DNA from: Candidatus Nomurabacteria bacterium RIFCSPLOWO2_01_FULL_39_18
GTDB lineage: Bacteria; Patescibacteriota; Minisyncoccia; Phycocordibacterales; UBA9973
Length of the DNA stretch: 64,000 bases
Direction of reading: 5' to 3'
NCBI GenBank assembly: GCA_001787005.1
Contig: MFUV01000005.1
Coordinates: 2,764 to 66,763 of the forward strand
Shown piece by piece: positions 3,176 through 51,112 of the stretch. The translations under genes and the position numbers were made by a program. Positions within the stretch are counted from its first letter, which is position 1. Every line of letters starts with the position of its first letter. The notes under the pieces were generated by a model. That model searched no databases and was not told the DNA's origin. It saw only the letters and a list, made by a program, of their open reading frames with translations.

Positions 3176-5329
3176 ATGGAGACACAAAAAGCAAAACCGG
3201 AGTTGAAATTTCACATTCATTACAATGACACGATCTTTTATGAAGGAAAAACTTACAAGGTGGTAGAACTTCCCAGCTGGGAGAATGACAATAGATATAG
3301 GCTGACAAGCCCAGGCTTGCCGGATTTTAAGCTTAAATATACAAAATTACAAGAGGCGTTGGAAAGTGGGAAAGCTGTTTTCGTTCAAACTATTCCACCC
3401 AAAGTACAAGAAGAGGTAGAAAAATACAAAAATCCTGAAACCTTTAGGGTAAAAACCGACAGAAAGAAAACAAAACCTAAAAACGAAGTTGCAAGGTTTG
3501 TTTCGCCTGAAATAAAAAAATTAGAGGAACGTCTTAGGGTAGACAGAGTTAGGCGCATACACCTTCAAGAAGAAGCAAGAGAGGCTTTTGATAGGGGTGA
3601 CTTGTCCAAAGCAAGAAGATTAAACAGCGAAAGCCTTACTCCAATGGAGAAAGATTTGTTTAATTTCTTTGACGATAGAAAACGAGAAATTCCAGCAGAT
3701 ATACTGTCTTTAAATGAAAAATTTAGCCAGATGAGCTATCGTCTTGAATATGATCTGAAACGAAAAGAAGAAGCTTTGGCCCAAGAGCCTACGTTAGTTA
3801 CACTAGAAACAAAAATTCCATGCGCTGTCGTGGAAGATCAGATTAGGCTTGCTCTTTCGTCTCACCTTGAAAACCATGGGAAAATAGAGGAGTTAAAAGT
3901 TAAGGGTGTAGGAGATAAAATAATAATAGGAGCAACAATAATTACACGTAGCTCGATGATGACCTTTAGTCGTGAAGTAAGGGTGACACTTGAGAACAAA
4001 GATACCGGCATTGAAGTGAAAAATGAGATGGAAAAGGAAGATTTTGTTTTTTTAATTAGATCAGCCATTGAAGGTTTGAGGGAAGAGATAGCAGAGAAAG
4101 TAATGTTGGAGGGTTTAGAAATTAAAAAAATAGAGATTAGGAATGGAGAATTAGTGGTAACTTCCGGCGCGCCAGAAACATCTGCTCCTACTCCAGAAAC
4201 AGCACCTGCTCCCGTAGAGTGGACAGAGGCAGATGAAGAAGAATTGCGGAGAATTGAAAAGAAACTTAAGGAGATAGAAGAGCAAGAGATGTTGGAAACC
4301 GGAATTTTTACACCGGAGTTTGTGGGAGAGAGAGTTAAATTTATCCTAGAGTCTTATGTCTTTGGACAGGGGTCAAAAGCAGTTATAAAAGTGGAGAGTC
4401 TAGCTACTGAAGGCAAAGATAATGCAATAAAATTGACTGGAAAGTTAACAATCTCGGATCATCGGGGCAGCCCAAATCAAAATACTGTTGAAAATATTGA
4501 CACAATTCTTGTGAATAATGTTAAAAAAGGTGAAATCCCTATTGTGGCAAGCGGCGATTTGGTATTTATCCTTGGCGACAGAGGTGAAGTCGTTCCCAAT
4601 GGAATAAAAAAATATATAGAGGAAAAAGGAGGGCGAGAAGTTGAGACAATGAAGATTGAAGATGGAAAGCTGGTGGTGGAGTTTAAGGTACCTACTGGAC
4701 CTGATACTGGAGTGCAAGAGGTAGAAATTCTTACGCCACCAACAGAAACAGGAGAAGGGGTGGGGCTTGATGCCTCGATTTCTCCACCCAGCGTTCCGGC
4801 AGAAACCGCCCCATCTTCCTCGCCTGTTCCACCGCCTGTGCCGGAAGTTAAAAGGGGGCCAGAGGTAGAAATTTTTCCAACGAAGTTTATAGAAGATACA
4901 ATTAAAAAACTTCTCGCCTTTAAAAAAGACAGCAAGCTTGAAGGTGGGGGGGAAGAGGAGAAAATAAAGGTTGGAGAAGTTAAGGGTTTAGAAATTAAAG
5001 GAAAAGGTGGTGAAATAATTCTAAATGCAAAAGTTAATGTGGAGATGAAGGTACCAGGGACAGAAAAAACTGTAACCAGTGATGTTGGAATAAAAGTAGT
5101 TCTTGGAAGTAAAAATAACATTATTGTGGTAAAAAATTGCGAGATTAAAGCAAATGTTAATATGATTATTGATCGGATTCTGAACCCACTTCTGGTCCAC
5201 TTCGTCAAACCACACCTTGAAAAAATTTCAGAGACATTAAAGTCTTACATTGAAGACAACGATCCGAAAAGAAGAAAAGTTGAAAAAATGGAAATTGAGA
5301 ATGGTCAATTGAAAGTTACGTTTAAATAA
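3176..5329 (+). CDS. Hypothetical Lys/Glu-rich protein containing two copies of a ~120-aa module shared with the next gene
   Basis: 717-aa ORF starting after a TATAAT at 3158. Internal repeated module ending ...RKVEKMEIENGQLKVTFK. A Pro/Ser/Thr-rich linker. Confidence 0.6.
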   Translation: METQKAKPELKFHIHYNDTIFYEGKTYKVVELPSWENDNRYRLTSPGLPDFKLKYTKLQEALESGKAVFVQTIPPKVQEEVEKYKNPETFRVKTDRKKTKPKNEVARFVSPEIKKLEERLRVDRVRRIHLQEEAREAFDRGDLSKARRLNSESLTPMEKDLFNFFDDRKREIPADILSLNEKFSQMSYRLEYDLKRKEEALAQEPTLVTLETKIPCAVVEDQIRLALSSHLENHGKIEELKVKGVGDKIIIGATIITRSSMMTFSREVRVTLENKDTGIEVKNEMEKEDFVFLIRSAIEGLREEIAEKVMLEGLEIKKIEIRNGELVVTSGAPETSAPTPETAPAPVEWTEADEEELRRIEKKLKEIEEQEMLETGIFTPEFVGERVKFILESYVFGQGSKAVIKVESLATEGKDNAIKLTGKLTISDHRGSPNQNTVENIDTILVNNVKKGEIPIVASGDLVFILGDRGEVVPNGIKKYIEEKGGREVETMKIEDGKLVVEFKVPTGPDTGVQEVEILTPPTETGEGVGLDASISPPSVPAETAPSSSPVPPPVPEVKRGPEVEIFPTKFIEDTIKKLLAFKKDSKLEGGGEEEKIKVGEVKGLEIKGKGGEIILNAKVNVEMKVPGTEKTVTSDVGIKVVLGSKNNIIVVKNCEIKANVNMIIDRILNPLLVHFVKPHLEKISETLKSYIEDNDPKRRKVEKMEIENGQLKVTFK

Positions 5330-8734: not shown

Positions 8735-8811
8735 ACCCGGCAGTAGAGCTTGGCAATACTTATAAAGTAAATTTTTATTTTAAAAAAACTTTGCCAAGTC
8801 TCACTACCGGG
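8735..8811. repeat. REP-like hairpin element (ACCCGGtAGTAGAGCTTgG...CAAGTCTCACTACCGGGT), copy 1
   Basis: Imperfect long stem with conserved termini shared with copies at 12815-12854 and 37053-37122. Termini resemble the inverted repeats that flank the IS200/RAYT-like gene at 45576/46294. Confidence 0.5.
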
Positions 8812-10845
8812 TGCTATATTTCAGATGTGACAACAGAAGCTCAACATCTAGGAGGATTAAATAACGAACAAAAAGAAGCGGCGCTTCATATGAAGGGTCC
8901 TATGCTCATTATCGCGGGCGCGGGCGCGGGAAAGACTAAAACAATAACACACCGAATTGTGAATTTGATAAAGGAGGGTATCGTCCCAGATAAAATCCTG
9001 GCTGTAACATTCACCAACAAAGCGGCTAAAGAAATGCGAGAGAGGATTATCGCAGAAATTGAGAAAAATGCGGGAGAACAAGACTCCGTACCGTTTGTCA
9101 GCACTTTCCACTCATTGGGAGTTTTTATTATAAAAGAAAATGCCAGGGTTCTGGGACTAACAAAATATTTCACCATTTTGGACGAGTCAGATTCTACGAT
9201 ATTGATCAAAGAATCATTAAAAGAATTGGGGATAGATCCAAAACAGCATGACCCGAAAAAAATAAAAAACATTATCAGCCGAGAGAAGGGGAAGTTCGTG
9301 CATTTGCCTATGTTTACAGAAGAAAGAACGGATTATGTGGGCAAAATTGTGGCGCAAGTTTGGAATTTGTATGAAAAGAAAAAGGAAAAAGAAAATTCGC
9401 TGGACTTTGATGATCTGCTTTTGAAAGCAACGAAATTATTGCAAGAACGGGAAGAAATTAGGCAAATTTATCAAGAAAAATGGGAATATATTCACATCGA
9501 TGAGTATCAGGACACAAATGAAGTGCAATATTTAATGTCAAAATTGCTTTCTGAAAAGCATAAAAACATAGCTGTGGTAGGGGATGCCGATCAGAATATA
9601 TATTCTTGGCGCGGAGCAAATTTAAAAAATATTTTGAGTTTTGAAAAAGATTACCCTGACGCAAAGATAGTCTTGCTGGAGCAGAATTATAGATCAACAA
9701 AAAACATCTTGGAAGCCGCGAACGTAATAATTAAAAAAAATAAATACCGCCCAGATAAAAATTTATTTACGAAAAACGCCATGGGTGAAAAAATTGGTTT
9801 TTATGAAGCGCTTGATGAGACCGATGAAGCGGACTTTGTGGCAACAAAGATTTTGGAAATTTTGGACAGGGCTGGTGTTGCTTTTGAGAATGGTCTGGCT
9901 GGGGGAGGGACCCAGGAATCCGAGGACCTGAGCAAAAGCAACACCAGCCCTGTCCTCTCCAACATAGCAATTCTCTATCGCGCAAATTTTCAATCTAGGG
10001 CGCTGGAAGAAGCAATGCTAAGATACAACATTCCATATCAAGTTTTAGGTGTTAAATTTTTCGAAAGAAAAGAAATCAAAGATACTTTGGCATATCTGCG
10101 CGCGGCATTAAACAGAGACAGTCTTTCGGATATAAAAAGAATTATCAATTTCCCTGCGCGAGGCATAGGGAAAGTAACTTTGGTGAAAATTTTCGCGGAT
10201 GATATAGAGAACCTGCCAGTAAAAATGAAAATAAAAATTATTAATTTTTATGAAATATTGGAGGAGATAAAAGAAAAAATAAAAAGTGAAAAGGCAAGCC
10301 AGGTGATAAAATTCGTAGTGAAAAAGTCTGGCATTGAAAACGAATTATCGAGTGGCACCGAGGAAGACATGGAAAGACTTGAAAACATAAAAGAGCTTGT
10401 AACATTGGCCCTCAAATATGACAATCTGGCGCCAGGGCTAGGCATAGAAAAGCTTTTAGAAGATGCGTCGCTTGCTTCTGATCAGGATTCTTTGATTGAA
10501 AGAGGAGAGAAGAAAGAAGTAAAAAATTCAGTAAAATTAATGACAGTTCATGCATCAAAGGGGCTTGAATTCAAATATGTTTTCATCACTGGGCTAGAAG
10601 ATGGACTCTTCCCACACGAGAAACAAAATGAAGAAACTAGTATTGATAGCGAAGAGGAGCGCAGACTTTTCTATGTAGCGGTTACCCGGGCTCGGAATAA
10701 ATTGTTTTTGTCATTTGCAAATTTTCGCACTATCTTTGGTTCACGCTCCATTAATACTCCATCAGAATTTATTTCCGATATCCCAGCTGATTTATTAGAA
10801 AAAGAAGAAGAGAAAAATTTATTGAAAACAATTTATTTAGACTAG
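8791..10845 (+). CDS. pcrA: ATP-dependent DNA helicase PcrA/UvrD (SF1)
   Basis: Walker A IIAGAGAGKTKTITHRI, DEYQDTN, QNYRST, VKLMTVHASKGLEFKYVF, LFYVAVTRAR. The true start is probably the GTG at 8827 (MTTEAQHLGGLNNEQKEA..), just after the REP-like hairpin. The gene carries an 88-nt palindromic insert at 9866-9953. Confidence 0.9.
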   Translation: MPSLTTGCYISDVTTEAQHLGGLNNEQKEAALHMKGPMLIIAGAGAGKTKTITHRIVNLIKEGIVPDKILAVTFTNKAAKEMRERIIAEIEKNAGEQDSVPFVSTFHSLGVFIIKENARVLGLTKYFTILDESDSTILIKESLKELGIDPKQHDPKKIKNIISREKGKFVHLPMFTEERTDYVGKIVAQVWNLYEKKKEKENSLDFDDLLLKATKLLQEREEIRQIYQEKWEYIHIDEYQDTNEVQYLMSKLLSEKHKNIAVVGDADQNIYSWRGANLKNILSFEKDYPDAKIVLLEQNYRSTKNILEAANVIIKKNKYRPDKNLFTKNAMGEKIGFYEALDETDEADFVATKILEILDRAGVAFENGLAGGGTQESEDLSKSNTSPVLSNIAILYRANFQSRALEEAMLRYNIPYQVLGVKFFERKEIKDTLAYLRAALNRDSLSDIKRIINFPARGIGKVTLVKIFADDIENLPVKMKIKIINFYEILEEIKEKIKSEKASQVIKFVVKKSGIENELSSGTEEDMERLENIKELVTLALKYDNLAPGLGIEKLLEDASLASDQDSLIERGEKKEVKNSVKLMTVHASKGLEFKYVFITGLEDGLFPHEKQNEETSIDSEEERRLFYVAVTRARNKLFLSFANFRTIFGSRSINTPSEFISDIPADLLEKEEEKNLLKTIYLD
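9866..9953. repeat. Intragenic palindromic element inside pcrA, with 23-bp perfect terminal inverted repeats around a 37-nt GC-rich core
   Basis: ggacagggctggtgttgcttttg ... caaaagcaacaccagccctgtcc flank the core ggtctggctgggggagggacccaggaatccgaggacc. That core is the exact reverse complement of 11225-11261 in rsmA. It is translated in frame as ..AGVAFENGLAGGGTQESEDLSKSNTSPVLS.. Confidence 0.65.
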
Positions 10846-10882: not shown

Positions 10883-11851
10883 ATGCAAAAAGAAAGAAAA
10901 TACAAAGCAAAAAAGTCGTTAGGGCAAAATTTTTTAAAATCAGAACTGGCTTTAAAAAAAATTATTGAAGCAGGGGAGATAAAAAGGGGTGACATAATTT
11001 TAGAAATAGGACCAGGCAGAGGAGCATTGACCGAAAAACTTCTAGAAAAAGTTTACCTTGCTGGGGCGGGGCAGGGGTTGGTCATCGCAGTTGAAAAAGA
11101 CCGCGAGCTTTTTGAATTTTTAAAAACAAAATTTAAAAAAGAAATAGAGCAACGCTCTCTTGTACTAGTATATGGAGACATATTAAAATTTGATGCAAAA
11201 AAAACTGTTTTGAAGTTTTTTTCAGGTCCTCGGATTCCTGGGTCCCTCCCCCAGCCAGACCATTCAAAAAACTCAAAATCGTCTGATTTTAAAATAATTG
11301 CCAACATCCCCTACAACATCACTGGAGCGATTTTGAAAAAATTTTTAGGAGGGTTAAACCAACCGACAGACATGGTATTGATGGTTCAGCAAGAAGTCGC
11401 GAGGAGGATAATGGCCCGAGATAGTAAAGAAAGTATTCTTTCGATTTCTGTGAAGGCTTATGGTGAACCAAAAATTGTTATGAAGGTGCCAGCGCGATAT
11501 TTCAGGCCTGTGCCGAAAGTAGATTCAGCGATAATCATTATAAAAAATATTTCTCGCAAAATTTTTTCAGTATTACCCCCTCCGCCCAGAAAGTCTAATT
11601 GGGCACCTCCCCCTTATCAAGGGGGAGGTAGTAAAGAAGTTCAAGGTAAAACCTTGAACAGCCATGAATTTGAAGAGAAATTCTGGGAAATAGTGAAAGC
11701 GGGCTTTGCCCATAAGAGAAAAAAGCTCTCCAGTAATTTAAAAAATCTAAAAGACGGAAGCAAGGCTTCCGTCTCGAGCCTGGGAGATAGGAGAGCGGAA
11801 GATTTAACACTAGAAGACTGGATTGCGTTGTGTAAAAAGTGTTATAATTAA
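10883..11851 (+). CDS. rsmA: 16S rRNA (adenine1518/1519-N6)-dimethyltransferase RsmA/KsgA
   Basis: SLGQNFL, ILEIGPGRGALTEKLL, ANIPYNITGAIL. At 322 aa it is longer than typical RsmA because of two GC-rich in-frame inserts (11221-11268 and 11598-11634). Confidence 0.9.
   Translation: MQKERKYKAKKSLGQNFLKSELALKKIIEAGEIKRGDIILEIGPGRGALTEKLLEKVYLAGAGQGLVIAVEKDRELFEFLKTKFKKEIEQRSLVLVYGDILKFDAKKTVLKFFSGPRIPGSLPQPDHSKNSKSSDFKIIANIPYNITGAILKKFLGGLNQPTDMVLMVQQEVARRIMARDSKESILSISVKAYGEPKIVMKVPARYFRPVPKVDSAIIIIKNISRKIFSVLPPPPRKSNWAPPPYQGGGSKEVQGKTLNSHEFEEKFWEIVKAGFAHKRKKLSSNLKNLKDGSKASVSSLGDRRAEDLTLEDWIALCKKCYN
11221..11268. repeat. Intragenic GC-rich element in rsmA (tcaggtcctcggattcctgggtccctcccccagccagaccattc), inverted copy of the pcrA element core
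   Basis: 37 nt identical, and about 48 nt near-identical, to the reverse complement of 9891-9927. Flanked by an A/T-rich imperfect inverted repeat. Encodes FFSGPRIPGSLPQPDHSK in RsmA. Confidence 0.65.
11598..11634. repeat. GC-rich hairpin element cctccccc-ttatcaa-gggggagg inside rsmA
   Basis: 8-bp G/C stem with loop TTATCAA. The same loop and a near-identical stem (ccccctcc-ttatcaa-ggaggggg) occur at 19463-19485 inside another gene. Translated as PPPYQGGGS. Confidence 0.55.
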
Positions 11852-12814: not shown

Positions 12815-12854
12815 ACCCGGTAGTAGATCTTTGGTAAAAGTCTCACTACCGGGT
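12815..12854. repeat. REP-like hairpin element, copy 2 (acccggtagtagatctttggtaaaagtctcactaccgggt)
   Basis: Same termini as copies 1 and 3. It directly abuts a TATAAT and the start of the 12869 gene. Confidence 0.5.
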
Positions 12855-23918: not shown

Positions 23919-23996
23919 GTGAAATTTAATGAGTGAAATGAATATAAATTTCCTCATCCCGTACTAAATTTTAGATTAAATGATATTAAAATAAAA

Positions 23997-25049
23997 ATGA
24001 TTATAAAAGATGAAAATAAATTAAGATTGAGAACTACAAGTAAAATTTTAGTACTGGGATTTATTTTTATACTCATAGGATTTTTTAGTCCGAGTCTAGA
24101 TGTAAACGCTGTGGAACAATACGGAACTTGTAATTGGGTTGAAGCTGAACAGAAAAGGAAGGAAGAAAATTATCTACAAGCAAATTGTTTAGCAAAGGGC
24201 AATACCGCAACTTGGGTAGGTTACTACTATCCCTTGGCTCCATTGCCTGGCTTGGGGAACAGGGAAGATGGAGGAATTGACACCGCGCAAATAGACAGCA
24301 CCGGAAAAAGCATTGCCTTGGGTGCATACCTAAACACAATGATAAAAATAATCATCGGAATTGCCGCAATTTTGTCTGTGGTTATGATTGTGATAGGGGG
24401 GATAGAATACATGACCTCTGAATTAATATCTAGTAAGGAAGCGGGTAAAGAAACAATAAAGAACGCGCTCTTCGGACTTCTGGTAGCTCTTGGCGCTTAT
24501 GCGCTTTTGAATACAATAAATCCGGACTTGCTGAAATCCGACCTAGACGTCCCAGGTGTGACTGTCACAGTAGATCTTGAAGCTGATGTCCCACAGACTT
24601 ATGACCCAGCAACCAGAAAATATGCCAATGGAGCTCTCTTTAACGCGCCATGGAATGACACAGTTGGGGGAATTACCCCAGCATGTACAACAGAAACTGG
24701 TACAGGATGTTTGCCAAGATCAGTTACTGCAAAACAACCAGAATGTTCTACTATTGGTCAACAAAATTGCACTTCAACAAGAGGTCTAAATACTAGTAAT
24801 TTGAGAACAATACAATATGGTTGTGGATGTAACGTATTAATCACTGGTGGAACAGAATGGTGGCTACACGGCGGGCGAAGTGGAAGTACGACCCATCAGT
24901 CTGGAAGTACGACCGTCGACCTTAGAACAACACCTGAATTGACTAGATATCTAATGGGTGGGACAACAGCTCCGGTCGCAGGACGAAGATACCCAACACC
25001 AGTTGGATCGGCATTGTTTGAAGGAAATCATTGGCACATTGGTCCATAA
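23997..25049 (+). CDS. VirB2/TrbC-pilin-like domain (two adjacent hydrophobic helices) fused to a Cys-rich extracellular C-terminal domain
   Basis: Helices KIIIGIAAILSVVMIVIGGIEYM and ALFGLLVALGAYALLNTINP, separated by a short polar loop, as in T4SS pilins. The C-terminal 150 aa have 8 Cys. Confidence 0.45.
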   Translation: MIIKDENKLRLRTTSKILVLGFIFILIGFFSPSLDVNAVEQYGTCNWVEAEQKRKEENYLQANCLAKGNTATWVGYYYPLAPLPGLGNREDGGIDTAQIDSTGKSIALGAYLNTMIKIIIGIAAILSVVMIVIGGIEYMTSELISSKEAGKETIKNALFGLLVALGAYALLNTINPDLLKSDLDVPGVTVTVDLEADVPQTYDPATRKYANGALFNAPWNDTVGGITPACTTETGTGCLPRSVTAKQPECSTIGQQNCTSTRGLNTSNLRTIQYGCGCNVLITGGTEWWLHGGRSGSTTHQSGSTTVDLRTTPELTRYLMGGTTAPVAGRRYPTPVGSALFEGNHWHIGP

Positions 25050-25130
25050 AATAATTTTACTTGTCCCGTACTAAATTTTTGATTACGGGGTATAATGATA
25101 AAAATTAATAAATAAAATTTTAGTATCGGG

Positions 25131-26495
25131 ATGTCAAAAAGAAACTTCACACTTTTAATAATAATTTTAATTCTAGGAACAGTCGGGTTTTTTGTATTTC
25201 TATATTCTCGTGGAGAGACACCTAGAGGAGAGGGAGGCGAGGGCACTAATTTCATCGCAAGGTTTAATCCATTCAGCAACAAAAAACCAGCGCCGGAAGA
25301 CACAGGGCCCACAGAGGATACCTCTTCACCTATAGAAGATCCTGAAGAAAAAATGCTGGAAGTAGAACTAAAAAAAGTTTCAAGTATGGAAATCGCTGGG
25401 TTTGGAGTATTTACGAAAGAAAGATTGAAAGAGATGAACCCCTCTCCAGCCCTCCCCTTGTCAGGGGAGGAAGAGAATCCTGCCCCCCCTGCTAAGGGGG
25501 GTTCGGGGAGTCTGAAACCCACACCGCCACCGACTGAATTTGCAACAGCAGTAAGATATGTGGCGAGAGCTACTGGGAACATTTATCAGACTTTCGCAGA
25601 CAAAATAATTGAGCGAAAGTTTTCTGGAACATTAATACCTAAAGTATACGAAGCGCATTTCGGCAATCATGGGGGATCTGTGGTGATGCGATACTTAAAG
25701 GGGGATGAAAAGACCATAGAAACTTTTTTCAGTGTCCTCCCGAAAGAATATTTGGGCGGTGATGCAACGGAAAACAATGAGATAAAAGGATCATTCTTAC
25801 CTAATAACATAAAAGATATAAGCCTTTCATCTGATACTTCTAAAATATTCTACCTTTTTGAGAGTGAAAGTAATTTAGGAGAAAGCATCATAGGCACAAC
25901 CTTGAGCTTGTTGGACAATAAAAAGGTTCAGATATTTGATTCTCCTTTTACGGAATGGCTGTCATCCTGGCCAAATAATAAAATTATCACCCTTTCCACT
26001 AAGCCTTCTGCGAACACTCCAGGATACATGTACAGCATTGATGGAGTTGGTAAAAACTTAACTAAAATCTTGGGTGATATAAATGGATTAACTACGCTCA
26101 CAAGTCCGGACGGAAAGTTGGTTCTTTACAGTGATAATAATCTAACTTCATATATTTACCATACGGATACTAAAAGTTCGGATTTATTGGGGATAAAAAC
26201 TCTGCCAGAAAAATGTGTCTGGGGGGGCGGGAGTGATATTTTTTACTGCGCTGTACCGAAATTAATTGGCGCTAGCCAATATCCAGATACTTGGTACCAG
26301 GGAGAAGAGTCATTTTCTGACCAAATTTGGAAAATAGATGTTGAAACAGGAAATGCCACCATGATCGAAGACCCGATCATGGCTCTGGGGGGAGAGGATG
26401 TTGATGGCATTAAGCTTGCTTTAGACGAAGGAGAGAGTTATCTATTTTTTGTAAACAAAAAAGATTCTTTTTTGTGGGAACTAAAGCTGAAATAA
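25131..26495 (+). CDS. Membrane-anchored protein with TolB-like beta-propeller repeats; hypothetical
   Basis: N-terminal TM helix LLIIILILGTVGFFVFLY. A GC-rich in-frame insert at 25452-25510. Repeats such as SPDGKLVLYSDNN. Confidence 0.55.
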   Translation: MSKRNFTLLIIILILGTVGFFVFLYSRGETPRGEGGEGTNFIARFNPFSNKKPAPEDTGPTEDTSSPIEDPEEKMLEVELKKVSSMEIAGFGVFTKERLKEMNPSPALPLSGEEENPAPPAKGGSGSLKPTPPPTEFATAVRYVARATGNIYQTFADKIIERKFSGTLIPKVYEAHFGNHGGSVVMRYLKGDEKTIETFFSVLPKEYLGGDATENNEIKGSFLPNNIKDISLSSDTSKIFYLFESESNLGESIIGTTLSLLDNKKVQIFDSPFTEWLSSWPNNKIITLSTKPSANTPGYMYSIDGVGKNLTKILGDINGLTTLTSPDGKLVLYSDNNLTSYIYHTDTKSSDLLGIKTLPEKCVWGGGSDIFYCAVPKLIGASQYPDTWYQGEESFSDQIWKIDVETGNATMIEDPIMALGGEDVDGIKLALDEGESYLFFVNKKDSFLWELKLK

Positions 26496-26578: not shown

Positions 26579-27073
26579 TTAGATAGCGCCAATGTATTTG
26601 ATCACTACTCGGCGAGACGGTCCGAAACCAACTGATTCAGTTTTTAGATCCGTGGCATCGGACAAAAATTCATGTACCACCCGTCGTTCGAAAGCTGACA
26701 TCGGATCCACTTCTATGTTTGATTTGAAATAGCGCGCTCGCTCCGACATCATATGTGCCACGGCACGAACATTATCAACACGTTTCTTTTGGAAACCATT
26801 AATGTCAATTAGAATTTCTGGCCACATGTCGGACTTGTGGGAATCCCACAAGTCCGACATGTGGTCTCTCTTGGCTTCAATCATTCTGCGAGCAAGATGG
26901 TTTAAGGCATTGAGCGCTTCACCATCGCGAGAGATGAAAAGATGCGGTTCATTTACCTCAACTGAAAACCATGTATTAGTACCATTGTCTTCAGTAATGG
27001 TAATTTTGTTGAGCATCGTTCCAGTTTTCTCAATCAATTCTTTTATTAAATTTTGTATTGTTTCCTTGTCCAT
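26579..27073 (-). CDS. jag: Jag/KhpB RNA-binding protein (KH + R3H domains)
   Basis: R3H motif RRVVHEFLSD. Position immediately downstream of yidC in the conserved rnpA-yidC-jag arrangement. Confidence 0.85.
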   Translation of the reverse strand: MDKETIQNLIKELIEKTGTMLNKITITEDNGTNTWFSVEVNEPHLFISRDGEALNALNHLARRMIEAKRDHMSDLWDSHKSDMWPEILIDINGFQKKRVDNVRAVAHMMSERARYFKSNIEVDPMSAFERRVVHEFLSDATDLKTESVGFGPSRRVVIKYIGAI

Positions 27074-37052: not shown

Positions 37053-37122
37053 ACCCGGTAGTAGAGCTTTGCGATATGCGAAGCATGCATCGAAGATGCG
37101 TCGCAAAGTCTCACTACCGGGT
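37053..37122. repeat. REP-like hairpin element, copy 3
   Basis: acccggtagtagagctttgcga ... tcgcaaagtctcactaccgggt with an inner GCATGC-centred hairpin. Same termini as copies 1 and 2. Confidence 0.5.
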
Positions 37123-39002: not shown

Positions 39003-39224
39003 ATGTCTACAATATCTGTGCCTTTAAATCCTAAACTAGAGGCGTCATTGGATAATTTAATAAGATCTGGCTTTAGAGACAATAAAGCCGCAGTTATGCG
39101 AGAAGCTCTGTCTCGTCTTGCTGAGGAGGAGGCAATTCAAGTTGTACTTCGGGCTGAACAGGAAATATCACAAGGTAAAGGATTACGAGGAGATTTAAGA
39201 GATCTGATGAAAAAAATAAAATAA
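39003..39224 (+). CDS. ParD/RHH-like type II antitoxin
   Basis: 73 aa. N-terminal beta-strand followed by helices (..AAVMREALSRLAEEE..). Directly precedes a RelE/ParE-like ORF. Confidence 0.6.
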   Translation: MSTISVPLNPKLEASLDNLIRSGFRDNKAAVMREALSRLAEEEAIQVVLRAEQEISQGKGLRGDLRDLMKKIK

Positions 39225-39225
39225 A

Positions 39226-39486
39226 ATGCTTGAGCTCACTTATGCCCCGATCTTTATTAAAGAATTCAAAAAACCAGAAGCATTTTTACAGGAGGAGGTT
39301 AAAGAAAAAATAGAATTATTTAAAGACTCATCGAACCATAAACAATTAAGAGTTCATAAACTAAAAGGTCCCATGAAAGACAGATACAGTTTTTCTGTAA
39401 GTTACAGTTTCCGAGTTGTTTTTTCCTATGCCTCAAAAACAAGAGTCAATATTTTATCACTTGGTGACCACGACATTTATGATTAA
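39226..39486 (+). CDS. RelE/ParE-family toxin
   Basis: 86 aa with QLRVHKLKG...YSFRV...ILSLGDHDIY, a pattern typical of RelE/ParE. Starts 2 nt after the antitoxin stop. Confidence 0.7.
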   Translation: MLELTYAPIFIKEFKKPEAFLQEEVKEKIELFKDSSNHKQLRVHKLKGPMKDRYSFSVSYSFRVVFSYASKTRVNILSLGDHDIYD

Positions 39487-40581: not shown

Positions 40582-40866
40582 TGATTTAATAATATGTTAT
40601 ACTACTTGTATGGTACATTTATCAACAGGGTATCAACAAGGCTATCAACATTATAGCATTTGTCGCTCTTCCCATATAGTAAAATGTATTTAGGAAGTTA
40701 TTTGATGAAAGAAGGCATTAATCTCTAAGCAATCAGCCACCGGTTATACGAGTTTGCATAGGACGTTCTGGTACTTTTATTAGTTCTCTGGCGCTATCCT
40801 ATAATAATTTGTTACTCTTCTAGCACAGCTAGGAAAGGATTGTTTAGAGATTAATGCTTTTTCTTT

Positions 40867-40980
40867 GTGAGGAATAAAATATGAAAGTTTTAGAGCACGG
40901 ATATTTTTTTGCTAAAAAATTCCTCGTGCTCGCACCGTCGTGCTCCCAAGTCTCTAAAACTTTCATATTTTATTCCTCAC
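40867..40980. mobile_element. MITE-like element with 29-bp perfect terminal inverted repeats (GTGAGGAATAAAATATGAAAGTTTTAGAG)
   Basis: Left arm 40867-40895 and right arm 40952-40980 are exact reverse complements. A 56-nt GC-richer core has its own inverted repeats. The right arm encodes the last three codons (SEE) and the stop of pilB. Confidence 0.5.
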
Positions 40981-42691
40981 TTAGATCCACCACACTTCGC
41001 ACTTCTTCGAGTGAAGTAATTCCATTTAATACTTTTACCAAACCATCCTGGCGCATTGAAAGTATCCCTTGATTGCGCGCCACTCTCTTGATTTCATGTT
41101 CACTCGGATTTTCAGGCATTATTTTCTCAACCGCTTCATTGGTTATAATCGCCTCAAAAATTCCTATTCTTCCATTGTAACCAGTTTTATTACATTTCTC
41201 ACAGCCGACTGGAGCGAAAAATTTAACAGGCGCGTCTGGGTTTATATTATAGCTTGTGAGGCTTTTGCCCTCATCTTTGATGCTATCCATCACTAGTTTT
41301 ACAGTTTTCGATTCCTCTTCAGTCGGCGTATATTCTTTCCTACAAAATGTGCAAAGAATACGCACCAAGCGCTGAGCCATGGAAAGGGACAGCGCTGAGA
41401 CCAAAATTTTTGGGTTCACTCCAAGGTCAATAAGACGCGGGATGACACCGGCGGCGTTGTTGGTGTGAAGTGTTGAGAAAACCATGTGGCCGGTCAAAGA
41501 CGACTGCACTGCGATTTCCGCTGTATCCCCGTCACGGATTTCTCCAACCATTATTACGTCTGGATCTTGCCGGAGTGCCGAGCGTAGTCCTTCAGGGAAA
41601 GTATAGCCTCTTTTCAGATTTATTTGGGTTTGAGTTATGCCAACTAAATGATACTCCACCGGATCTTCAATGGTGATTATATTTATTTCCGGTGAATAAA
41701 TTTTTCGCAAAAATGCGTAGAGAGTCGTAGTTTTACCAGAGCCCGTTGGACCCGTGACCAGAATCAAGCCGTTTGGTTTTTTGATTTGATCTTGGACGAT
41801 TTTAAAAAGGTATGGTTCAATTCCTAATTTTTCAAATTCCACCTGGATGGATTTCGGATCCAATATACGCATAACAATTGCTTCACCGTATGCACCGGGG
41901 ATTAAGGAAACACGGATATTTATTTCCTCATCTTTTTCCATAATATTGAAGCGCCCATCTTGGGCTACTTTTGAAGTTAACTTCATTCCCGAGAGGAGTT
42001 TAATGCGAGAATTAAGTAAGCGATACACATCAGATCCAAAAAAGTTTATATCCTGAAGCACCCCATCAAGCCGCAACCGCAGTCTGCTCCTGTCTTTCTC
42101 TGGTTCTATGTGCACGTCAGAAGCGCGAATCGCTATTGCTCCAGCTAAAATTATTTCGAGCAGACGAGAAATTCTATGAGTTTTATTCGCTTCCAAAGTT
42201 TCTACTACTAATTTTTCAATATCTTGGATGTGATGTATGTTCTTCGCCGTATTTGTTAAAATTTCTCCGGAAATATCTAAACCCCCGATTCTAGAACTTT
42301 CAGCCATTGAAAGCTCCTTATATCTTTCCCAGACCTTGTTTAGACTTGCGCTAGATGTCATATAGAAAGTCGGATTCAGATTTTTTCTTTCCATATCTTC
42401 TTTTAGTTTTTTAAAAAGATCCTCTGAAGGCGCGCGGACAGCTATATAGACGTTATCTCCGAACAGTTTAAAAGGTGCGACTTTCATCGCGATGGCGTCA
42501 GCCTCCGGAATCGCTCTCAAGGCTTCATTATCCACACCAATACGATGGAGATCAATATAGGGGAGACCGTATTTTGATTCGGCCAAAGTTGCTACTAGTT
42601 GCTCTTCCTCTTGTTTATGCAATTCTTCTAGTTGCCTATTTTGTTTTTCCTCATTAAAATCCTTTGCCACACATAAAGTATACCCCCACAC
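40970..42691 (-). CDS. pilB: Type IV pilus / type II secretion assembly ATPase (PilB/GspE family)
   Basis: N-terminal GspE-N domain. Walker A LVTGPTGSGKTTTLYA. Asp box. C-terminal tetra-Cys CTFCRKEY...CEKCNKTGYNGRIGIFE. The true start is probably the internal GTG (..AKDFNEE), because the track start lies inside the 23-bp palindrome. Confidence 0.85.
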   Translation of the reverse strand: MWGYTLCVAKDFNEEKQNRQLEELHKQEEEQLVATLAESKYGLPYIDLHRIGVDNEALRAIPEADAIAMKVAPFKLFGDNVYIAVRAPSEDLFKKLKEDMERKNLNPTFYMTSSASLNKVWERYKELSMAESSRIGGLDISGEILTNTAKNIHHIQDIEKLVVETLEANKTHRISRLLEIILAGAIAIRASDVHIEPEKDRSRLRLRLDGVLQDINFFGSDVYRLLNSRIKLLSGMKLTSKVAQDGRFNIMEKDEEINIRVSLIPGAYGEAIVMRILDPKSIQVEFEKLGIEPYLFKIVQDQIKKPNGLILVTGPTGSGKTTTLYAFLRKIYSPEINIITIEDPVEYHLVGITQTQINLKRGYTFPEGLRSALRQDPDVIMVGEIRDGDTAEIAVQSSLTGHMVFSTLHTNNAAGVIPRLIDLGVNPKILVSALSLSMAQRLVRILCTFCRKEYTPTEEESKTVKLVMDSIKDEGKSLTSYNINPDAPVKFFAPVGCEKCNKTGYNGRIGIFEAIITNEAVEKIMPENPSEHEIKRVARNQGILSMRQDGLVKVLNGITSLEEVRSVVDLSEE

Positions 42692-42725
42692 TTATTTTAT
42701 TCAAAATAAGTGTGGGGGTATACTT
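42676..42725. promoter_or_regulatory. Perfect palindrome with 23-bp arms and a 4-nt loop in the divergent pilB/polA promoter region
   Basis: aagtatacccccacacttatttt-attc-aaaataagtgtgggggtatactt. Immediately followed by TATAAT (42732-42737) and the polA ATG at 42745. Confidence 0.5.
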
Positions 42726-45549: not shown

Positions 45550-45575
45550 TTTTGGATAGGTAAAGTAACCAATAA

Positions 45576-46318
45576 GAGCTTTAGACTCTCACTGCGAGTT
45601 ATGATATAGTAAGATACATGCGGAAGGAACCACTAATAACGGGAGAGTATTACCATATTTATAATAGAGGCGTAGATAAGCGAGATATTTTTAATAATCT
45701 GAAAGATCTCGAGCGTTTTAAAGAAAGCATAAAACAATTTAATCAAATTGAAGGCATTGGTAGTTTAGAAATGTACAATAAATCAATAAGAGCTTTAGGC
45801 TCTCACCCCGACAGTTATCTGAAATTAAAATCAGAACCACTTGTGGCTATCATTGCTTTTTGTATCAACCCCAATCATTTTCATTTTCTTATTAAACAAC
45901 TTGTCGACGGCGGGATAGCTAAATTTTTTCAAAAACTTCAGGGTGGGTATACTTATTATTTTAATCAAAAAAACCAGAGATCGGGGGCACTACTTCAGGG
46001 GACTTTTAAATCTAAATTAATTAAAAATGATGATTATTTCAGAAAAACATTTGCATATGTAAATCAAAATTATTCTGTTCACAATATTCCTAAAAGCAAA
46101 CTTCCTTTTATTTTTGCAAGTGACACGGAATATGAAAGCGAGCTTTTTAATTTAGTGTCAAAGTCTGAAGGACAAAAGATGCTAGACATTTTTGAAGGTA
46201 AGAATAATCTTAAAAAACATTGTAAAGAAATTATATCAATTATTCGAGAAGAACGGGGGAAAACTTCCCTAGAAGAACCGGATGAATTATTTCAGTGAGA
46301 GTCTAAAGCTCTCACTGG
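45576..46318. mobile_element. IS200/IS605-type (RAYT-like) unit: Y1 HUH transposase gene flanked by 20-bp perfect inverted repeats
   Basis: Left AGAGCTTTAGACTCTCACTG (45576-45595) and right CAGTGAGAGTCTAAAGCTCT (46294-46313) are exact reverse complements. The right flank itself forms a 9-bp-stem hairpin. Confidence 0.6.
45618..46298 (+). CDS. IS200-like / REP-associated tyrosine transposase (HUH Y1 family)
   Basis: YHIYNRGVDKRDIF..ERF, HuH motif NPNHFHFLIK, and YFNQKNQRSGALLQGTFKSKLIKNDDYFRKTFAYVNQN (catalytic Tyr region). These align closely with IS200 TnpA blocks. Confidence 0.8.
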   Translation: MRKEPLITGEYYHIYNRGVDKRDIFNNLKDLERFKESIKQFNQIEGIGSLEMYNKSIRALGSHPDSYLKLKSEPLVAIIAFCINPNHFHFLIKQLVDGGIAKFFQKLQGGYTYYFNQKNQRSGALLQGTFKSKLIKNDDYFRKTFAYVNQNYSVHNIPKSKLPFIFASDTEYESELFNLVSKSEGQKMLDIFEGKNNLKKHCKEIISIIREERGKTSLEEPDELFQ

Positions 46319-46835: not shown

Positions 46836-46911
46836 AATACTTGTCCCGTACTAAATTTTTGATTATGACACATGACCATTATTAATAAAAACTTAAAATT
46901 TTAGTACCGGG

Positions 46912-47607
46912 ATGATTTATCTTTTTTCTGGCGATGATGTGAAGAATAAACACCTCTCTTACGAGAAGTTTATAAAATCCCTGCCTGCGCAGGCAGGTAT
47001 TCCAGCGAATACTGAAACCTTTTTTATAAACAGAAATGATTTTAATAGGAATCAGATAGAAAGTCTTTATTCTGGGTCAGGTCTTTTTTTCGAAGATTGC
47101 GTAGTGGTATTCCAAGATGTTTTCGAGAGAGAAGAAACTCGAGAATTTGTTTTAGAGAAGTTGGATTTAATGGGCAAATCTTCCAGCTCTTTTGTTTTTC
47201 TAGAAGGTAAATTAAATAAACCGATTCTAGATGCTTTCAAGAAAATCGAGCCAAAAAAACTCCAGATTAATATTTTCGAATTACCGAAAGAAAAAAAGGA
47301 GAAATTCAATAATTTTCTTCTAGCCAATGCTTTTGGAGTTAGAGATAAATTAAATCTTTGGATTTATTTCCGGCAAGCTGTCGACCTCGGGGTGGGGATG
47401 GAGGAGTTGATCGGAGTACTTTTCTGGAAAATCAAGGATATGCTAATAAAAAAAGATTTCCGCAAATTCTCCGAAGCAGAACTTAAAAATTCCGCCTCTC
47501 GCCTCTCCTACCTTTTACCAGAAGCCCGCAAGGCTAGTCGTGACGCCGAAGCAGTCTTTGAGCAGTTTTTGCTTGAAGCTTTTTTAAAGAGTACTATAAT
47601 TAAGTAG
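46912..47607 (+). CDS. Hypothetical protein, possibly a short DNA polymerase III delta-subunit-like (HolA-like) protein
   Basis: N-terminus MIYLFSGDDVKNKHL resembles HolA starts. Contains the in-frame 18-nt palindrome CCTGCCTGCGCAGGCAGG (LPAQAG) at 46980-46997. The ATG abuts an inverted-repeat right arm. Confidence 0.35.
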   Translation: MIYLFSGDDVKNKHLSYEKFIKSLPAQAGIPANTETFFINRNDFNRNQIESLYSGSGLFFEDCVVVFQDVFEREETREFVLEKLDLMGKSSSSFVFLEGKLNKPILDAFKKIEPKKLQINIFELPKEKKEKFNNFLLANAFGVRDKLNLWIYFRQAVDLGVGMEELIGVLFWKIKDMLIKKDFRKFSEAELKNSASRLSYLLPEARKASRDAEAVFEQFLLEAFLKSTIIK

Positions 47608-48829: not shown

Positions 48830-51112
48830 ATGACTCAAGGTATTTTCAAGTTGCATAGCCCATTTAAACCAGCTGGCGATCAGCCTGTGGCTATTTTAAA
48901 GCTCCTTGATGGATTAGAGAAGGGCATGCAAAAACAAACTCTGCTCGGGGCAACTGGCACAGGCAAGACTTTTACCATGGCAAATGTGATAGTAGAATAC
49001 AATAAGCCGACATTGGTAATAGCGCACAACAAAACCCTTGCGGCTCAACTAGCTCAGGAATTCAGAGAATTTTTCCCAGATTCCGCGGTGCACTATTTTG
49101 TTTCCTACTATGATTATTACCAACCAGAAGCTTATATGCCGACAACGGACACTTATATAGAAAAGGATGCGCAGATAAACAAAGAAATAGATCGTCTTCG
49201 TCATGCTTCAACCCAAGCGCTTTTGACTAGACGAGATGTTATCATTGTCGCTTCCGTGTCTTGTATTTATGGTTTAGGTTCTCCAGAAGAATATGAAAAA
49301 GTTAATTTAAAAATTAAACTTGGTATGAAAATGGAGAGGCTGACTCTGATGAAACGTCTGATTGAAATTCATTTCGAACGCACAAATGCTGATCTTACCC
49401 CAGGGACTTTCCGATCTATCGGCTCTTGGGTAGAATTTATGCCAGTGTCAGAGACAATAATGTACCAGATTGAAATAGATGATGGGGCTGTCTCAAAAAT
49501 AACCAAAATTGATCCAATTTCTTCTCAGATAATAAAAGAAGAGAAAGATGTTTTTATTTTTCCGGCCAAGCATTTCATCACAGAAGATACGAAAAAGAAC
49601 AAAGCCCTGATTGAAATTAAGAAAGAACTCGCATTGCAATTAAAAAAGTTTCAGAAAGAAGGCAAGTTGCTTGAGGCAGAGCGGATAAAGCGCCGGACCA
49701 ATTACGATCTCGCCATGATCAAGGAAGTTGGTTATTGCAGTGGCATCGAAAATTATTCGCGACATTTATCAGGTAAACAAAAAGGCGAACCGCCAGAAAC
49801 CTTGCTCTCTTATTTCCCCCATACTGGAGATGGCGAACCTGATTTTCTTACCATCATTGATGAATCCCACGTAACTCTGCCTCAACTAGAAGGTATGTAT
49901 GCGGGCGATGCTTCACGCAAAAAAACCCTTGTAGAATATGGTTTTCGCCTGCCTTCAGCTAAGGATAACCGGCCTCTTAAATATGAGGAATTTCAGAAGC
50001 GCATCGGTCCAGTAGTTTATACCAGTGCGACGCCCGGAAAATACGAAATAGAAGAAAGTAAAAAAGAATGTGAACAAACTTGCCCCGCACGAAGTACTCT
50101 TTCGTGCGGGGTCGTAGAGCAAATAATCCGACCAACCGGGCTTGTCGATCCAGAGACAATAGTTCGACCAGTGAGTGCAAATTCTCCTCTTGAGGAGTAC
50201 CCGAAGGGGGAGGTGGATGAATTTTCCACCCCGTCTCGCAAGCGATCCACTCCTCAAGAGGGGAATAAATACCCCGGCCAGATTCAAGATTTTATAAGTG
50301 AAGCAGAGAAAACAATTAAAAAGGGTTTTCGAGTTCTAGCCACCACACTAACAAAAAAAATGGCCGAAGATCTGTCTCTTTATCTCAAAGACCTGCCTGC
50401 GCAGGCAGGCAAGAAAATAAAATCAGAGTATCTGCATAGTGATATAAAAACTTTGGAAAGAATCCAAATACTTTCAAAGTTTCGCAAAGGTGATTTTGAT
50501 GTTTTGGTGGGAGTAAACTTGCTTCGCGAAGGGCTTGATTTGCCCGAAGTGGCGTTAATTGGGATTCTCGATGCAGACAAAGAGGGATTTTTGCGCTCAG
50601 AAACATCTCTTATCCAAACCATCGGGCGTGCCGCGCGCAACAGTGAAGGGAAGGTAATTCTCTATGCAGATGTTATCACTGGCTCGATGAATAAAGCGCT
50701 AGCCGAAACTGCTCGTCGTCGGGATATTCAGCTCACCTATAATAAAAAGCACGGCATCACCCCCAAGACGATAATAAAAAAGATAAAAGATATTACCGAA
50801 GAATTCGAAAGTGAACATGGAAAAGCTGTAAATGCAGAATTAAAACTTGATGTGGAAATATTCCGTAGAGCTTACAAAAAAGAACTGACTAGACCACTTA
50901 AACCAAAAGGTTTAGGCGAATCGCATCTCTCTGATCAAGAAATAGAGGCATTAACCTATGAGAAAATAATAAAAATAAAAGAAAAAGAAATGAATCGAGC
51001 CGTGAAAGAGCTGGATTTCGAAACAGCGGCCATACTTCGTGATGAAATTAGAGTTTTGTCTCAAAAAACTGTTTACGGTACCGGCAATAAAACAAAAAAT
51101 GTAGTTCCTTGA
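48830..51112 (+). CDS. uvrB: Excinuclease ABC subunit B
   Basis: Walker A GATGTGKTFT, beta-hairpin region, helicase motifs, and a C-terminal UvrB/UvrC interaction domain (EIEALTYEKIIKIKEKEMNRAVKELDFETAAILRDEI). At 760 aa it carries about 90 aa of GC-rich in-frame inserts (50082-50116, 50176-50281, 50392-50409). Confidence 0.95.
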   Translation: MTQGIFKLHSPFKPAGDQPVAILKLLDGLEKGMQKQTLLGATGTGKTFTMANVIVEYNKPTLVIAHNKTLAAQLAQEFREFFPDSAVHYFVSYYDYYQPEAYMPTTDTYIEKDAQINKEIDRLRHASTQALLTRRDVIIVASVSCIYGLGSPEEYEKVNLKIKLGMKMERLTLMKRLIEIHFERTNADLTPGTFRSIGSWVEFMPVSETIMYQIEIDDGAVSKITKIDPISSQIIKEEKDVFIFPAKHFITEDTKKNKALIEIKKELALQLKKFQKEGKLLEAERIKRRTNYDLAMIKEVGYCSGIENYSRHLSGKQKGEPPETLLSYFPHTGDGEPDFLTIIDESHVTLPQLEGMYAGDASRKKTLVEYGFRLPSAKDNRPLKYEEFQKRIGPVVYTSATPGKYEIEESKKECEQTCPARSTLSCGVVEQIIRPTGLVDPETIVRPVSANSPLEEYPKGEVDEFSTPSRKRSTPQEGNKYPGQIQDFISEAEKTIKKGFRVLATTLTKKMAEDLSLYLKDLPAQAGKKIKSEYLHSDIKTLERIQILSKFRKGDFDVLVGVNLLREGLDLPEVALIGILDADKEGFLRSETSLIQTIGRAARNSEGKVILYADVITGSMNKALAETARRRDIQLTYNKKHGITPKTIIKKIKDITEEFESEHGKAVNAELKLDVEIFRRAYKKELTRPLKPKGLGESHLSDQEIEALTYEKIIKIKEKEMNRAVKELDFETAAILRDEIRVLSQKTVYGTGNKTKNVVP
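50082..50116. repeat. Perfect 11-bp-stem GC hairpin (ccccgcacgaa-gtactct-ttcgtgcgggg) inside uvrB
   Basis: Translated as TCPARSTLSCGV, between conserved blocks where other UvrB proteins have no such segment. Confidence 0.55.
50176..50281. repeat. About 105-nt GC-rich element with inverted terminal repeats inside uvrB
   Basis: tcctcttgaggagt (50177-50190) and actcctcaagaggg (50264-50277) are inverted copies of each other. The element encodes NSPLEEYPKGEVDEFSTPSRKRSTPQEGNKYP between the conserved IVRP and GQIQD.. blocks. Confidence 0.55.
50392..50409. repeat. 18-nt self-complementary element CCTGCCTGCGCAGGCAGG inside uvrB (LPAQAG)
   Basis: Identical 18-mer at 46980-46997 in an unrelated gene, where it also reads LPAQAG. 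Degenerate copy at 55495-55512 in uvrC (LPTQAS). Confidence 0.6.

Follow-up and report, generated by a model that had tools for sequence, protein, structure and literature searches.

The pilB locus and its 3′ hairpin

The genome of Candidatus Nomurabacteria bacterium RIFCSPLOWO2_01_FULL_39_18 carries a large hairpin at the 3′ end of pilB, the gene for a PilB/GspE-type ATPase, and it is the nature and origin of this hairpin that we address here. The stretch of DNA analyzed (the window) spans 64,000 nucleotides (nt; 64 kb) of contig MFUV01000005.1 and has a G+C content of about 39%. Homologues of PilB and PcrA likewise point to Candidatus Nomurabacteria (Parcubacteria/Paceibacterota), and the proteins identical to those of the window are from RIFCSPLOWO2_01_FULL_39_18 (GCA_001785325.1). 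The local gene order consists of polA on the plus strand, pilB divergent from it on the minus strand, a spacer of about 390 nt, and ruvB, likewise on the minus strand; the order polA/pilB/.../ruvB/ruvC is maintained in relatives. The pilB open reading frame (ORF) occupies positions 40970..42691 of the minus strand and matches the Pfam family T2SSE (1e-116). Convergent with it lies a putative structured small RNA (sRNA) of about 155 nt (40706..40866, plus strand), whose U-run abuts the hairpin (40867-40980, 114 bases in total). A sequence-only reading of the window had described the hairpin as a miniature inverted-repeat transposable element (MITE)-like element that supplies the last codons and the stop of pilB and serves as its de facto terminator.

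The hairpin is built from two perfect 29-nt arms and a 56-nt core. The 29-mer GTGAGGAATAAAATATGAAAGTTTTAGAG stands at 40867-40895 on the plus strand and its exact reverse complement at 40952-40980, as the sequence-only reading had stated; both the sequence itself and a mismatch search agree on this, the latter giving no further match to GTGAGGAATAAAATATGAAAGTTTTAGAG with up to three mismatches in the 64-kb window, nor in 100 shuffles. Pairing between the arms reaches 34 nt at 94% when extended outward (40862-40895 with 40952-40985). The proximal arm (40952..40980, minus strand) overlaps most of the serine codon, the two glutamate codons and the stop codon of pilB (TAA at 40972-40970), followed by the sequence GAGGA-N7-ATG, and its native part GTGAGGAATAAAA (40968..40980, minus strand) comprises the conserved pilB 3′ end, namely, S-E-E-stop plus AA. 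The distal arm divides into an outer 13 nt (40867..40879), an exact inverted copy of this native end, and an inner 16 nt, TATGAAAGTTTTAGAG (40880..40895), which contains GAAAGTTTTAGAG(C), a motif common to the polA element of two relatives (L005/L022; loci and contigs used for comparison are denoted by L numbers). The core (40896..40951) was correctly said to have its own inverted repeat, through which it folds imperfectly on itself (40893-40910 with 40914-40931), and also holds a slipped 11-nt direct repeat with 14-nt spacing (40924-40934 and 40938-40948). The observation that each arm contains an ATG likewise stands, in both cases as GAGGA, 7 nt and ATG.

The predicted fold is very stable, in keeping with the description of the element as a large hairpin: −59 kcal/mol as RNA of the pilB-sense strand (z = −9.3) and −36.5 kcal/mol as DNA (z = −12.5), with no shuffled sequence equaling either value. 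The locus is base-for-base the same in contigs of at least seven samples, drawn from ENA megahit assemblies, JGI, the NCBI metagenome-assembled genome (MAG) GCA_001785325.1 and Logan, and the hairpin is therefore real; this identity across independent assemblies rules out an assembly artefact. Three contigs stop within the hairpin, one at 40895 (L004) and two in the inner A/T run (L038, L039). These ends are attributed to assembly-graph breaks at inverted repeats, and a reading of them as population heterogeneity was dropped, since no alternative junction is seen and they fit such breaks.

From the ATG of the arm runs a 40-amino-acid (aa) ORF (40844..40966, minus strand), probably no gene, whose start, read as the reverse complement, encodes its second half. 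A real small protein was considered and rejected: neither this ORF nor a 63-aa ORF has a Pfam match, and a search of a set of 5.8 billion protein clusters with the 40-aa peptide returned only the identical ORF from the same locus.

The gene end is native and the hairpin is an insertion

Whether the hairpin supplies the end of PilB, as the sequence-only reading proposed, is decided by comparison with relatives. Of the 120 PilB homologues that match best (77-85% identity), 108 have EE as their last residues and 106 DL-x-EE, with SEE itself in 19. The DNA of relatives at the stop codon reads ...GAGGAATAA, ...GAAGAATAA or ...GAGGAGTAA, and the pilB DNA of nine relatives aligns with that of the window through the stop codon and past it. 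No displaced native pilB end is found downstream of the hairpin in this alignment. Given the conserved C-termini and the DNA aligned across the stop, SEE and TAA are therefore native to the gene: the overlap of arm and coding sequence holds, the notion that the element supplied or replaced the end of PilB does not, and the protein is predicted to be unaltered by the insertion.

The same alignment with nine relatives defines the boundaries. Both flanks align around a single clean gap, within which the window has about 101 additional bases (40867-40967, the insertion in the strict sense). The empty site, exemplified by L006, reads ...GGAGGAATAA directly followed by AAAACAAAAAAGCATTAATC. On the pilB strand of the window, ...GTGAGGAATAAAA is followed in turn by TATGAAAGTTTTAGAG, the 56-nt core, CTCTAAAACTTTCATA, TTTTATTCCTCAC and AAAGAAAAAGCATTAATC, and the distal arm gives way at once to the native post-stop spacer of the relatives. 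The outermost 13 nt of that arm duplicate the pilB flank in inverted and not in direct orientation, a coincidence with a chance probability of about 4^-13. The alignment confirms a real, strain-specific insertion between the pilB stop and the putative sRNA terminator. The sequence-only reading had reasoned that a single copy together with conserved PilB codons would point to an ordinary, unusually long terminator; both are found, and yet the feature is an insertion.

Proposed origin of the hairpin

We propose that a lineage-specific palindromic insertion had its stem lengthened by a replication template switch that copied the native end of pilB, an account that we regard as about evenly poised between right and wrong. 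The inserted unit proper would consist of the 56-nt core and inverted ends of about 16 nt (TATGAAAGTTTTAGAG). This palindromic unit, or the stump of a lost downstream gene, would first have sat after the pilB stop. The nascent strand would then fold back on the inner hairpin, with GAG/CTC triplets giving two pairing registers, and a template switch would copy GTGAGGAATAAAA in reverse onto the far side, yielding the perfect 29-bp stem. The stem would extend 11 nt into pilB, the protein remaining untouched, and the hairpin would be transcribed as a large stem-loop at the 3′ end of the pilB mRNA, in its 3′ untranslated region, starting 9 nt ahead of the stop codon. Three parts of this account are inferred from the comparisons given here: the template-switch step, the arrival of the inner unit as mobile DNA, and whatever effect there may be at the RNA level.

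Template switching, according to published accounts, makes perfect stems in one event and expands inverted-repeat arms (PMC8794818; PMC13100816, PMC7202029). The pilB hairpin resembles the hairpins described there (PMC8794818, PMC7202029, PMC13100816) in its perfect stem and in a distal arm that is the exact reverse complement of the proximal arm, inclusive of coding bases at the native pilB end, and that is missing in the nine relatives, the pattern sought for a template switch. It is alike also in lacking a target duplication, in being single-copy and in the neighboring slippage or quasi-palindrome scars, here the direct repeat and the imperfect inner hairpin of the core, which we count in favor of template switching. 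Left unexplained by template switching alone are about 72 nt of the insert, that is, the inner arm and the core.

Comparison with MITEs, which a review treats (PMC10969869), is similarly two-sided. The hairpin shares with them a length of about 100 nt, inverted repeats, noncoding and AT-rich sequence, hairpin formation and a position at a gene end; it differs in having no direct duplication, no other copies and no cognate insertion sequence (IS), and in that 13 of the 29 arm bases belong to the host gene. The arms are perfect over 29 nt, but on one side the outer 13 nt belong natively to pilB, so that at most 14-16 nt can be the element's own. Around the 29-nt arms, flanked by TTCTTT and TTAGAT, no direct target-site duplication is present, only a trivial TA parse, nor does one appear against the empty site of the nine relatives; the inner 16-nt unit is flanked by inverted, not direct, copies. 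A cognate transposase with matching ends was not found in the window, which holds only a Y1/RAYT-like protein with unrelated flanking hairpins. From the lack of a direct duplication and of a displaced pilB end it follows that no MITE with its own 29-bp ends was inserted into the gene end or replaced it.

Searches for further copies, the first follow-up suggested by the sequence-only reading, were uniformly empty. The 25-mer of the arm has no second copy in 185,579 species genomes (one per species, GTDB), the L034 MAG included, a scan that tests the 29-mer model only, because the 25-mer holds 11 flank-specific bases. The inner unit was searched locally and in metagenome and viral scans: its gapped inner-repeat pattern, AAAGTTTTAGAG N40-70 CTCTAAAACTTT, has no match in viral contigs and 11 in JGI metagenomes, all unrelated, the scanned JGI collection being one without the JGI contig known to carry the hairpin locus. 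Neither plasmids and phages nor any of the fetched loci of relatives contain a copy of the hairpin. No source or homologue of the 56-nt core was found by blastn-short in the window and all fetched loci or by the plasmid and phage searches. In the genome itself the copy search covered the 64-kb window, about 90% of the genome lying outside it. Of the MITE-like description, then, the insertion and a hairpin of MITE size stand, whereas the target duplication, the further copies and the matching transposase do not, and the hairpin is an orphan insertion, not a demonstrated MITE.

The hairpin is most likely neutral or selfish DNA. It may secondarily protect the 3′ end as a stem-loop, or act as a buffer where the transcripts of pilB and the sRNA converge. 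Taken alone it is a small, probably neutral scar of modest interest. It nonetheless provides a natural example of an inverted-repeat arm that came to span a stop codon when host sequence was copied in inverted orientation, with the protein unchanged, and it cautions against taking "terminal inverted repeats" at face value.

Palindromic elements inside coding genes

A search for further long perfect inverted repeats brought to light elements that lie in frame within housekeeping genes, and these matter more than the hairpin itself. In pcrA (ORF 8791-10845, plus strand), a perfect inverted repeat at 9864-9955, with 23-nt arms and a 46-nt spacer, is in frame and corresponds to an insert of about 25 aa relative to Geobacillus PcrA (1pjr; 18-361 and 391-672 align to 7-347 and 353-649). 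Inserts at that point are hypervariable among PcrA homologues, ranging from 0 to about 60 aa, with none in P0163 (ILEITELTPLSDIAILYR), and two relatives (L042, L043) retain the pcrA hairpin through compensatory changes in the arms. The core of this element, which we call type 1, reads GAATGGTCTGGCTGGGGGAGGGACCCAGGAATCCGAGGACCTGAG (peptide ENGLAGGGTQESEDLS) and is found again in the polA linker of L005 and L006; reversed, with the peptide FSQVLGSPGP, it recurs in polA of L009, L024, L027 and L032, and also in other PcrAs. When a hidden Markov model (HMM) built from nine type-1 sequences was run on the window, it recovered pcrA (E = 4e-21) and, in addition, ksgA at 11214-11274 (E = 9e-16), with E values of 1e-17 to 1e-22 in relatives. 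The ksgA/rsmA copy (ORF 10883-11851, plus strand; element at 11194-11290) is in reverse orientation, in frame, with the peptide FFSGPRIPGSLPQPD, and forms an insert of about 17 aa relative to Bacillus subtilis KsgA. A further insert of about 31 aa is present in ksgA at residues 220-261.

A second family, type 2 (NSPLEEYPKGEV.EFSTP...TPQEGN; NSPLEEYPKGEVDEFSTP...TPQEGN), resides in uvrB (ORF 48830-51112, plus strand), where its inverted repeat (50181-50198 and 50249-50266) lies in a 34-aa in-frame insert relative to UvrB structures in the PDB. At the DNA level, this element and an insert in polA of L031 share about 90% identity; their flanks are unrelated, and there is no target duplication. 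UvrB has another insert of about 12 aa at residues 404-416. The two types are genuine palindromic elements that recur at several loci and are predicted to be translated in frame in whichever orientation they lie. At 26822-26864, a perfect 21-nt palindrome with a 1-nt loop, upstream of the R3H domain in an R3H-domain (Jag-like) gene (ORF 26579-27073, minus strand), may be another in-frame palindromic insert.

A close parallel is found in the Rickettsia palindromic elements (RPEs; PMC10969869), which like types 1 and 2 are about 90-130 nt long and occur at unrelated loci, in frame in housekeeping genes, here pcrA, ksgA, uvrB and polA. RPEs are known from Rickettsia, whereas the host here is a bacterium of the candidate phyla radiation (CPR), and the searchable literature gave no report of RPE-like elements in CPR bacteria. 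The pilB hairpin, in contrast, is extragenic save for the native codons in its arm, escapes the HMM of the family and differs from it in its unrelated core. If confirmed genome-wide, these families would mean that selfish DNA inside protein-coding genes, known from Rickettsia, reaches the ultra-small genomes of CPR bacteria, and would help account for hypervariable loops in CPR core proteins.

The bearing of the in-frame elements on the pilB hairpin is through its inner arm. This arm, GAAAGTTTTAGAGC, matches the inner arm of the L005/L022 polA element exactly over 14 nt and at the same arm/core junction; the type-1 motif adjoining the core is AAAGTTTT(A/G)GAGC, with L006 and L032 reading AAAGTTTTGGAGC. 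The shared size, architecture and inner-arm motif raise the prior probability of the inner unit having come in as a mobile palindrome. Two further points favor this origin: the genome demonstrably hosts mobile palindromic elements, and the insertion site is a hotspot. Further along the same line, Nomurabacteria would carry RPE-like families, lying in either orientation in essential genes of DNA repair and rRNA modification and with stems kept by compensatory change, and the pilB hairpin would be an extragenic member whose stem has just grown by copying the gene end, a view that we put forward tentatively, as doubtful but worth stating. Were it true, the hairpin would offer a direct view of how such elements gain locus-specific arms.

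A number of observations weigh against the account of a palindromic insertion lengthened by template switching. The inner-arm match comprises 14 nt only, was chosen post hoc, and its score was reached by 1/300 and 2/300 shuffles (p of about 0.005). Searched with nhmmer, the type-1 HMM (conserved core of about 46 nt, GGTCTGGCTGGGGGAGGGAC...CCGAGGACC) has no match at 40862-40985 with E up to 100, and the pilB core is unrelated to the type-1 family core; membership of the hairpin in type 1 is therefore not established. A six-frame peptide comparison of the core with the PcrA insert variants likewise gave nothing. There is no second copy of the inner unit in the data searched, and mobility of the pilB element is unproven. 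A rule by which every in-frame element would derive its arms from the flanks of its target was considered and rejected: where polA elements share a site, the flanks are conserved and the outer arms unrelated. As these outer arms are not flank copies, flank copying is no general property of the class. As to the template switch, the available copies represent one clonal population at 100% nucleotide identity. The next nearest PilB sequences are 85% identical, a 98% fragment (L034) being without the 3′ end, and the 90% PilB cluster consists of the same clone only, with no intermediate allele among its members. Neither intermediate state, the inner unit without the 13-nt extension or the reverse, is seen, and the order and mechanism of events are inferred for that reason.

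Alternative explanations

The hairpin might instead have arisen by a purely local fold-back or template switch that deleted a coupled downstream gene, with no mobile element involved. We judge this unlikely, if far from negligible. The lost gene would have used the GAGGAA codons at the pilB end as its Shine-Dalgarno (SD) sequence and begun ATGAAAGTTTTAGAG, and the remnant would comprise its first 24 or so codons together with an inverted copy of the 29 nt upstream. Such a layout is real in four relatives (L008, L027, L028, L033), in which a gene begins 1-8 nt past the pilB stop, with GA(G/A)GAA codons as its ribosome-binding site and the arrangement GA(G/A)GAATAA-ATG; the arm of the hairpin, too, has a well-spaced SD-ATG pair. 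One event would cover both the perfect 29-nt arms and the missing target duplication, and the element is single-copy in the searches made. Yet the predicted peptide, MKVLETWEHDGASTRNFLAKKYPC, has no homologue in the 5.8 billion protein clusters except itself, such a gene is seen in no relative, and a local origin would not lead one to expect the inner-arm motif common to the polA palindromic elements of sister species.

IS1397 inserts into the hairpin loops of repetitive extragenic palindromic (REP) units and bacterial interspersed mosaic elements (BIMEs). On this precedent, a TA-targeting MITE of 84 nt with 14-nt terminal repeats (TGAAAGTTTTAGAG...CTCTAAAACTTTCA) could have entered a pre-existing palindrome and duplicated the TA, its target being the central TA of a 28-nt palindrome, GTGAGGAATAAAA TA TTTTATTCCTCAC (GTGAGGAATAAAATATTTTATTCCTCAC), overlapping the pilB stop. 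An exact parse is possible, with TA on both sides of the 14-nt repeats, and the inverted flanks would be explained by standard transposition alone. The postulated palindrome, however, is found after pilB in no relative and would need an origin of its own, the gapped inner-repeat search gave only the unrelated JGI sequences and none in viral contigs, and a transposase of the IS630/mariner type is not present in the window. This course of events strikes us as improbable.

We consider it more improbable still that the hairpin is a selected regulatory structure of RNA or DNA—a terminator, attenuator, RNase target or invertible switch—and not junk DNA. In favor of selection are a very stable fold placed exactly at the stop codon, between convergent units, and the pcrA hairpin of this genome, whose retention in relatives through compensatory arm changes demonstrates that long hairpins can persist in this lineage. 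The pilB hairpin, on the other hand, occurs in one strain only and in no relative. It shares with intrinsic terminators and SPRITE-like repeats a stem-loop right after the stop codon but departs from them in its AT-rich stem, an intrinsic terminator stem being GC-rich, and in having no U-tract on either strand, the stem being followed by AAAGAAAAAGC on the pilB strand and by TTAGATCCACC (TTAGATCC) on the plus strand. A consensus scan returned no terminator-like or promoter-like site within the hairpin, and the terminator-like perfect palindromes of related loci are compact arrays of A-run, GC-stem and T-run, which the hairpin is not. The hairpin is hence not a canonical terminator, and the terminator function assigned to it by the sequence-only reading is not borne out.

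Other regulatory or structural identities fare no better. An invertible switch (inverton) was rejected, given a single orientation of the core in all contigs read (at least seven samples), no promoter-like site in the core and no recombinase gene noticed nearby. A known RNA family was rejected as well, Rfam having returned only weak, generic hairpin noise of the plant-miRNA type, and so was an integron attC site or CRISPR repeat (GTTTTAGAG), with no GTTRRRY core, no array and no integrase or cas genes seen.

That a MITE with its own 29-bp repeats replaced the end of pilB, supplying SEE and the stop and terminating the gene, is highly improbable in spite of the perfect repeats, MITE-like size, stop-codon overlap and stable hairpin. 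The C-terminal codons belong to the gene itself and are conserved; beyond the distal arm the sequence aligns directly to the post-stop spacer of relatives, so that a displaced end has no place there. A direct duplication is missing, the arm 25-mer occurs nowhere else in the species genomes or the window, and neither strand has a U-tract or a hit in the terminator scan.

A conserved structured RNA and a hotspot junction

The sRNA convergent with pilB is a candidate structured RNA, so far unannotated, predicted from comparative sequence analysis. A 26-bp stem closes the structure, which also comprises three inner hairpins and ends in a U-run. A highly conserved element of about 144 nt, GCATTAATCTCTAAACAATCC...GATTGCTTAGAGATTAATGCC, stands behind the pilB stop in at least nine relatives, separated from it by 7-20 A-rich bases; its window copy spans 40712-40860. 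Across 15 Paceibacterota genomes, 99.6% of cells are paired and seven pairs have changed on both sides; the covariation score was matched by none of 500 shuffles (0/500), and slid controls are 39-54% paired. Many G-U pairs are possible on the plus strand only. The element is always antisense just upstream of ruvB, even where other genes part it from pilB. It has no match in Rfam 15 at E up to 10. The sequence of the closing stem is nearly invariant, while synonymous sites of pilB vary in the same genomes. In relatives, its stem together with the A/U runs is the sole terminator-like structure after pilB.

The hairpin lies between two convergent transcription units, which makes its site a neutral landing zone. 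Comparison of relatives indicates that the pilB-sRNA junction is an insertion hotspot and a recombination-prone spacer. Besides the four loci with a gene immediately behind the stop, L005/L022 have 29 extra nt and a RelE/ParD-like pair with a duplicated arm of the sRNA beside it, L009 has GC-rich hairpins and a DUF559 gene, and in L032 the junction is longer by 52 nt. The duplicated sRNA 3′ arm around the toxin-antitoxin pair suggests integration at the sRNA end. The same kind of pair, a RelE/HigB-like toxin with a ParD-like antitoxin, stands after ruvB in the window (39003-39486, plus strand) and between pilB and the sRNA in L005/L022 (4762-5218). In L009/L010, positions 4731-4859 after the pilB stop contain repeated GC-rich palindromes (TCCCCCTGCGAAGGGGGA and variants), followed by the DUF559 endonuclease-like gene.

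Neighboring genes and other repeats

At its other end, the PilB ORF has 573 aa versus 565-566 aa in relatives, a difference that is N-terminal. The ORF start, GTG at 42691, sits within a conserved palindrome; translation more probably begins at the GTG at 42670, which gives 566 aa as in relatives. This perfect 23-nt palindrome with a 4-nt loop (42676-42725) lies between the divergent starts of polA and pilB, is kept in relatives, with a 20-nt version in L006-L008, and may be an operator or bidirectional element. Translated, it constitutes the spurious "MWGYTLCV" N-termini of several database PilB entries.

A gene for a Y1 transposase resembling the REP-associated tyrosine transposases (RAYTs) is located at 45618-46298 on the plus strand, 4.6 kb from the hairpin, with an HFH motif, a score of 30.8 bits to PF01797, and 29.5 bits to NF047646, under the NCBIfam cut-off of 80 bits. 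In relatives the polA-PEMT interval contains neither this gene nor a 129-aa ORF that accompanies it here, and the two therefore form a lineage-specific insertion. On both sides of the gene is the hairpin GTGAGAGTCTAAAGCTCTCAC (45572-45592 and 46295-46315), which has three matches, all at that gene. As in REP/REPIN-RAYT systems, the pilB hairpin has two inverted arms forming a long extragenic hairpin with a RAYT-like gene near; unlike them, it has no multi-copy family. A link between the two was rejected, the flanking GTGAGAGTCTAAAGCTCTCAC hairpins being unrelated to the pilB arms.

Two further repeats recur in the window. The inverted-repeat pair TCCCGTACTAAATTTT ... AAAATTTTAGTA(C/T)CGGGATG is present in three copies (23951-24060, 25058-25132 and 46838-46913), two of which stand directly upstream of the ORFs 25131-26495 and 46912-47607 and end at their ATG, the third overlapping the beginning of ORF 23997-25049, whose match to T4SS_pilin is below threshold; the pairs look like a shared operator or leader. 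Lastly, a motif of 17-20 nt, AAGTCTCACTACCGGGT, occurs three times (8793-8812, 12835-12854 and 37103-37122), in the last case within a 22-nt inverted repeat at 37053-37122.

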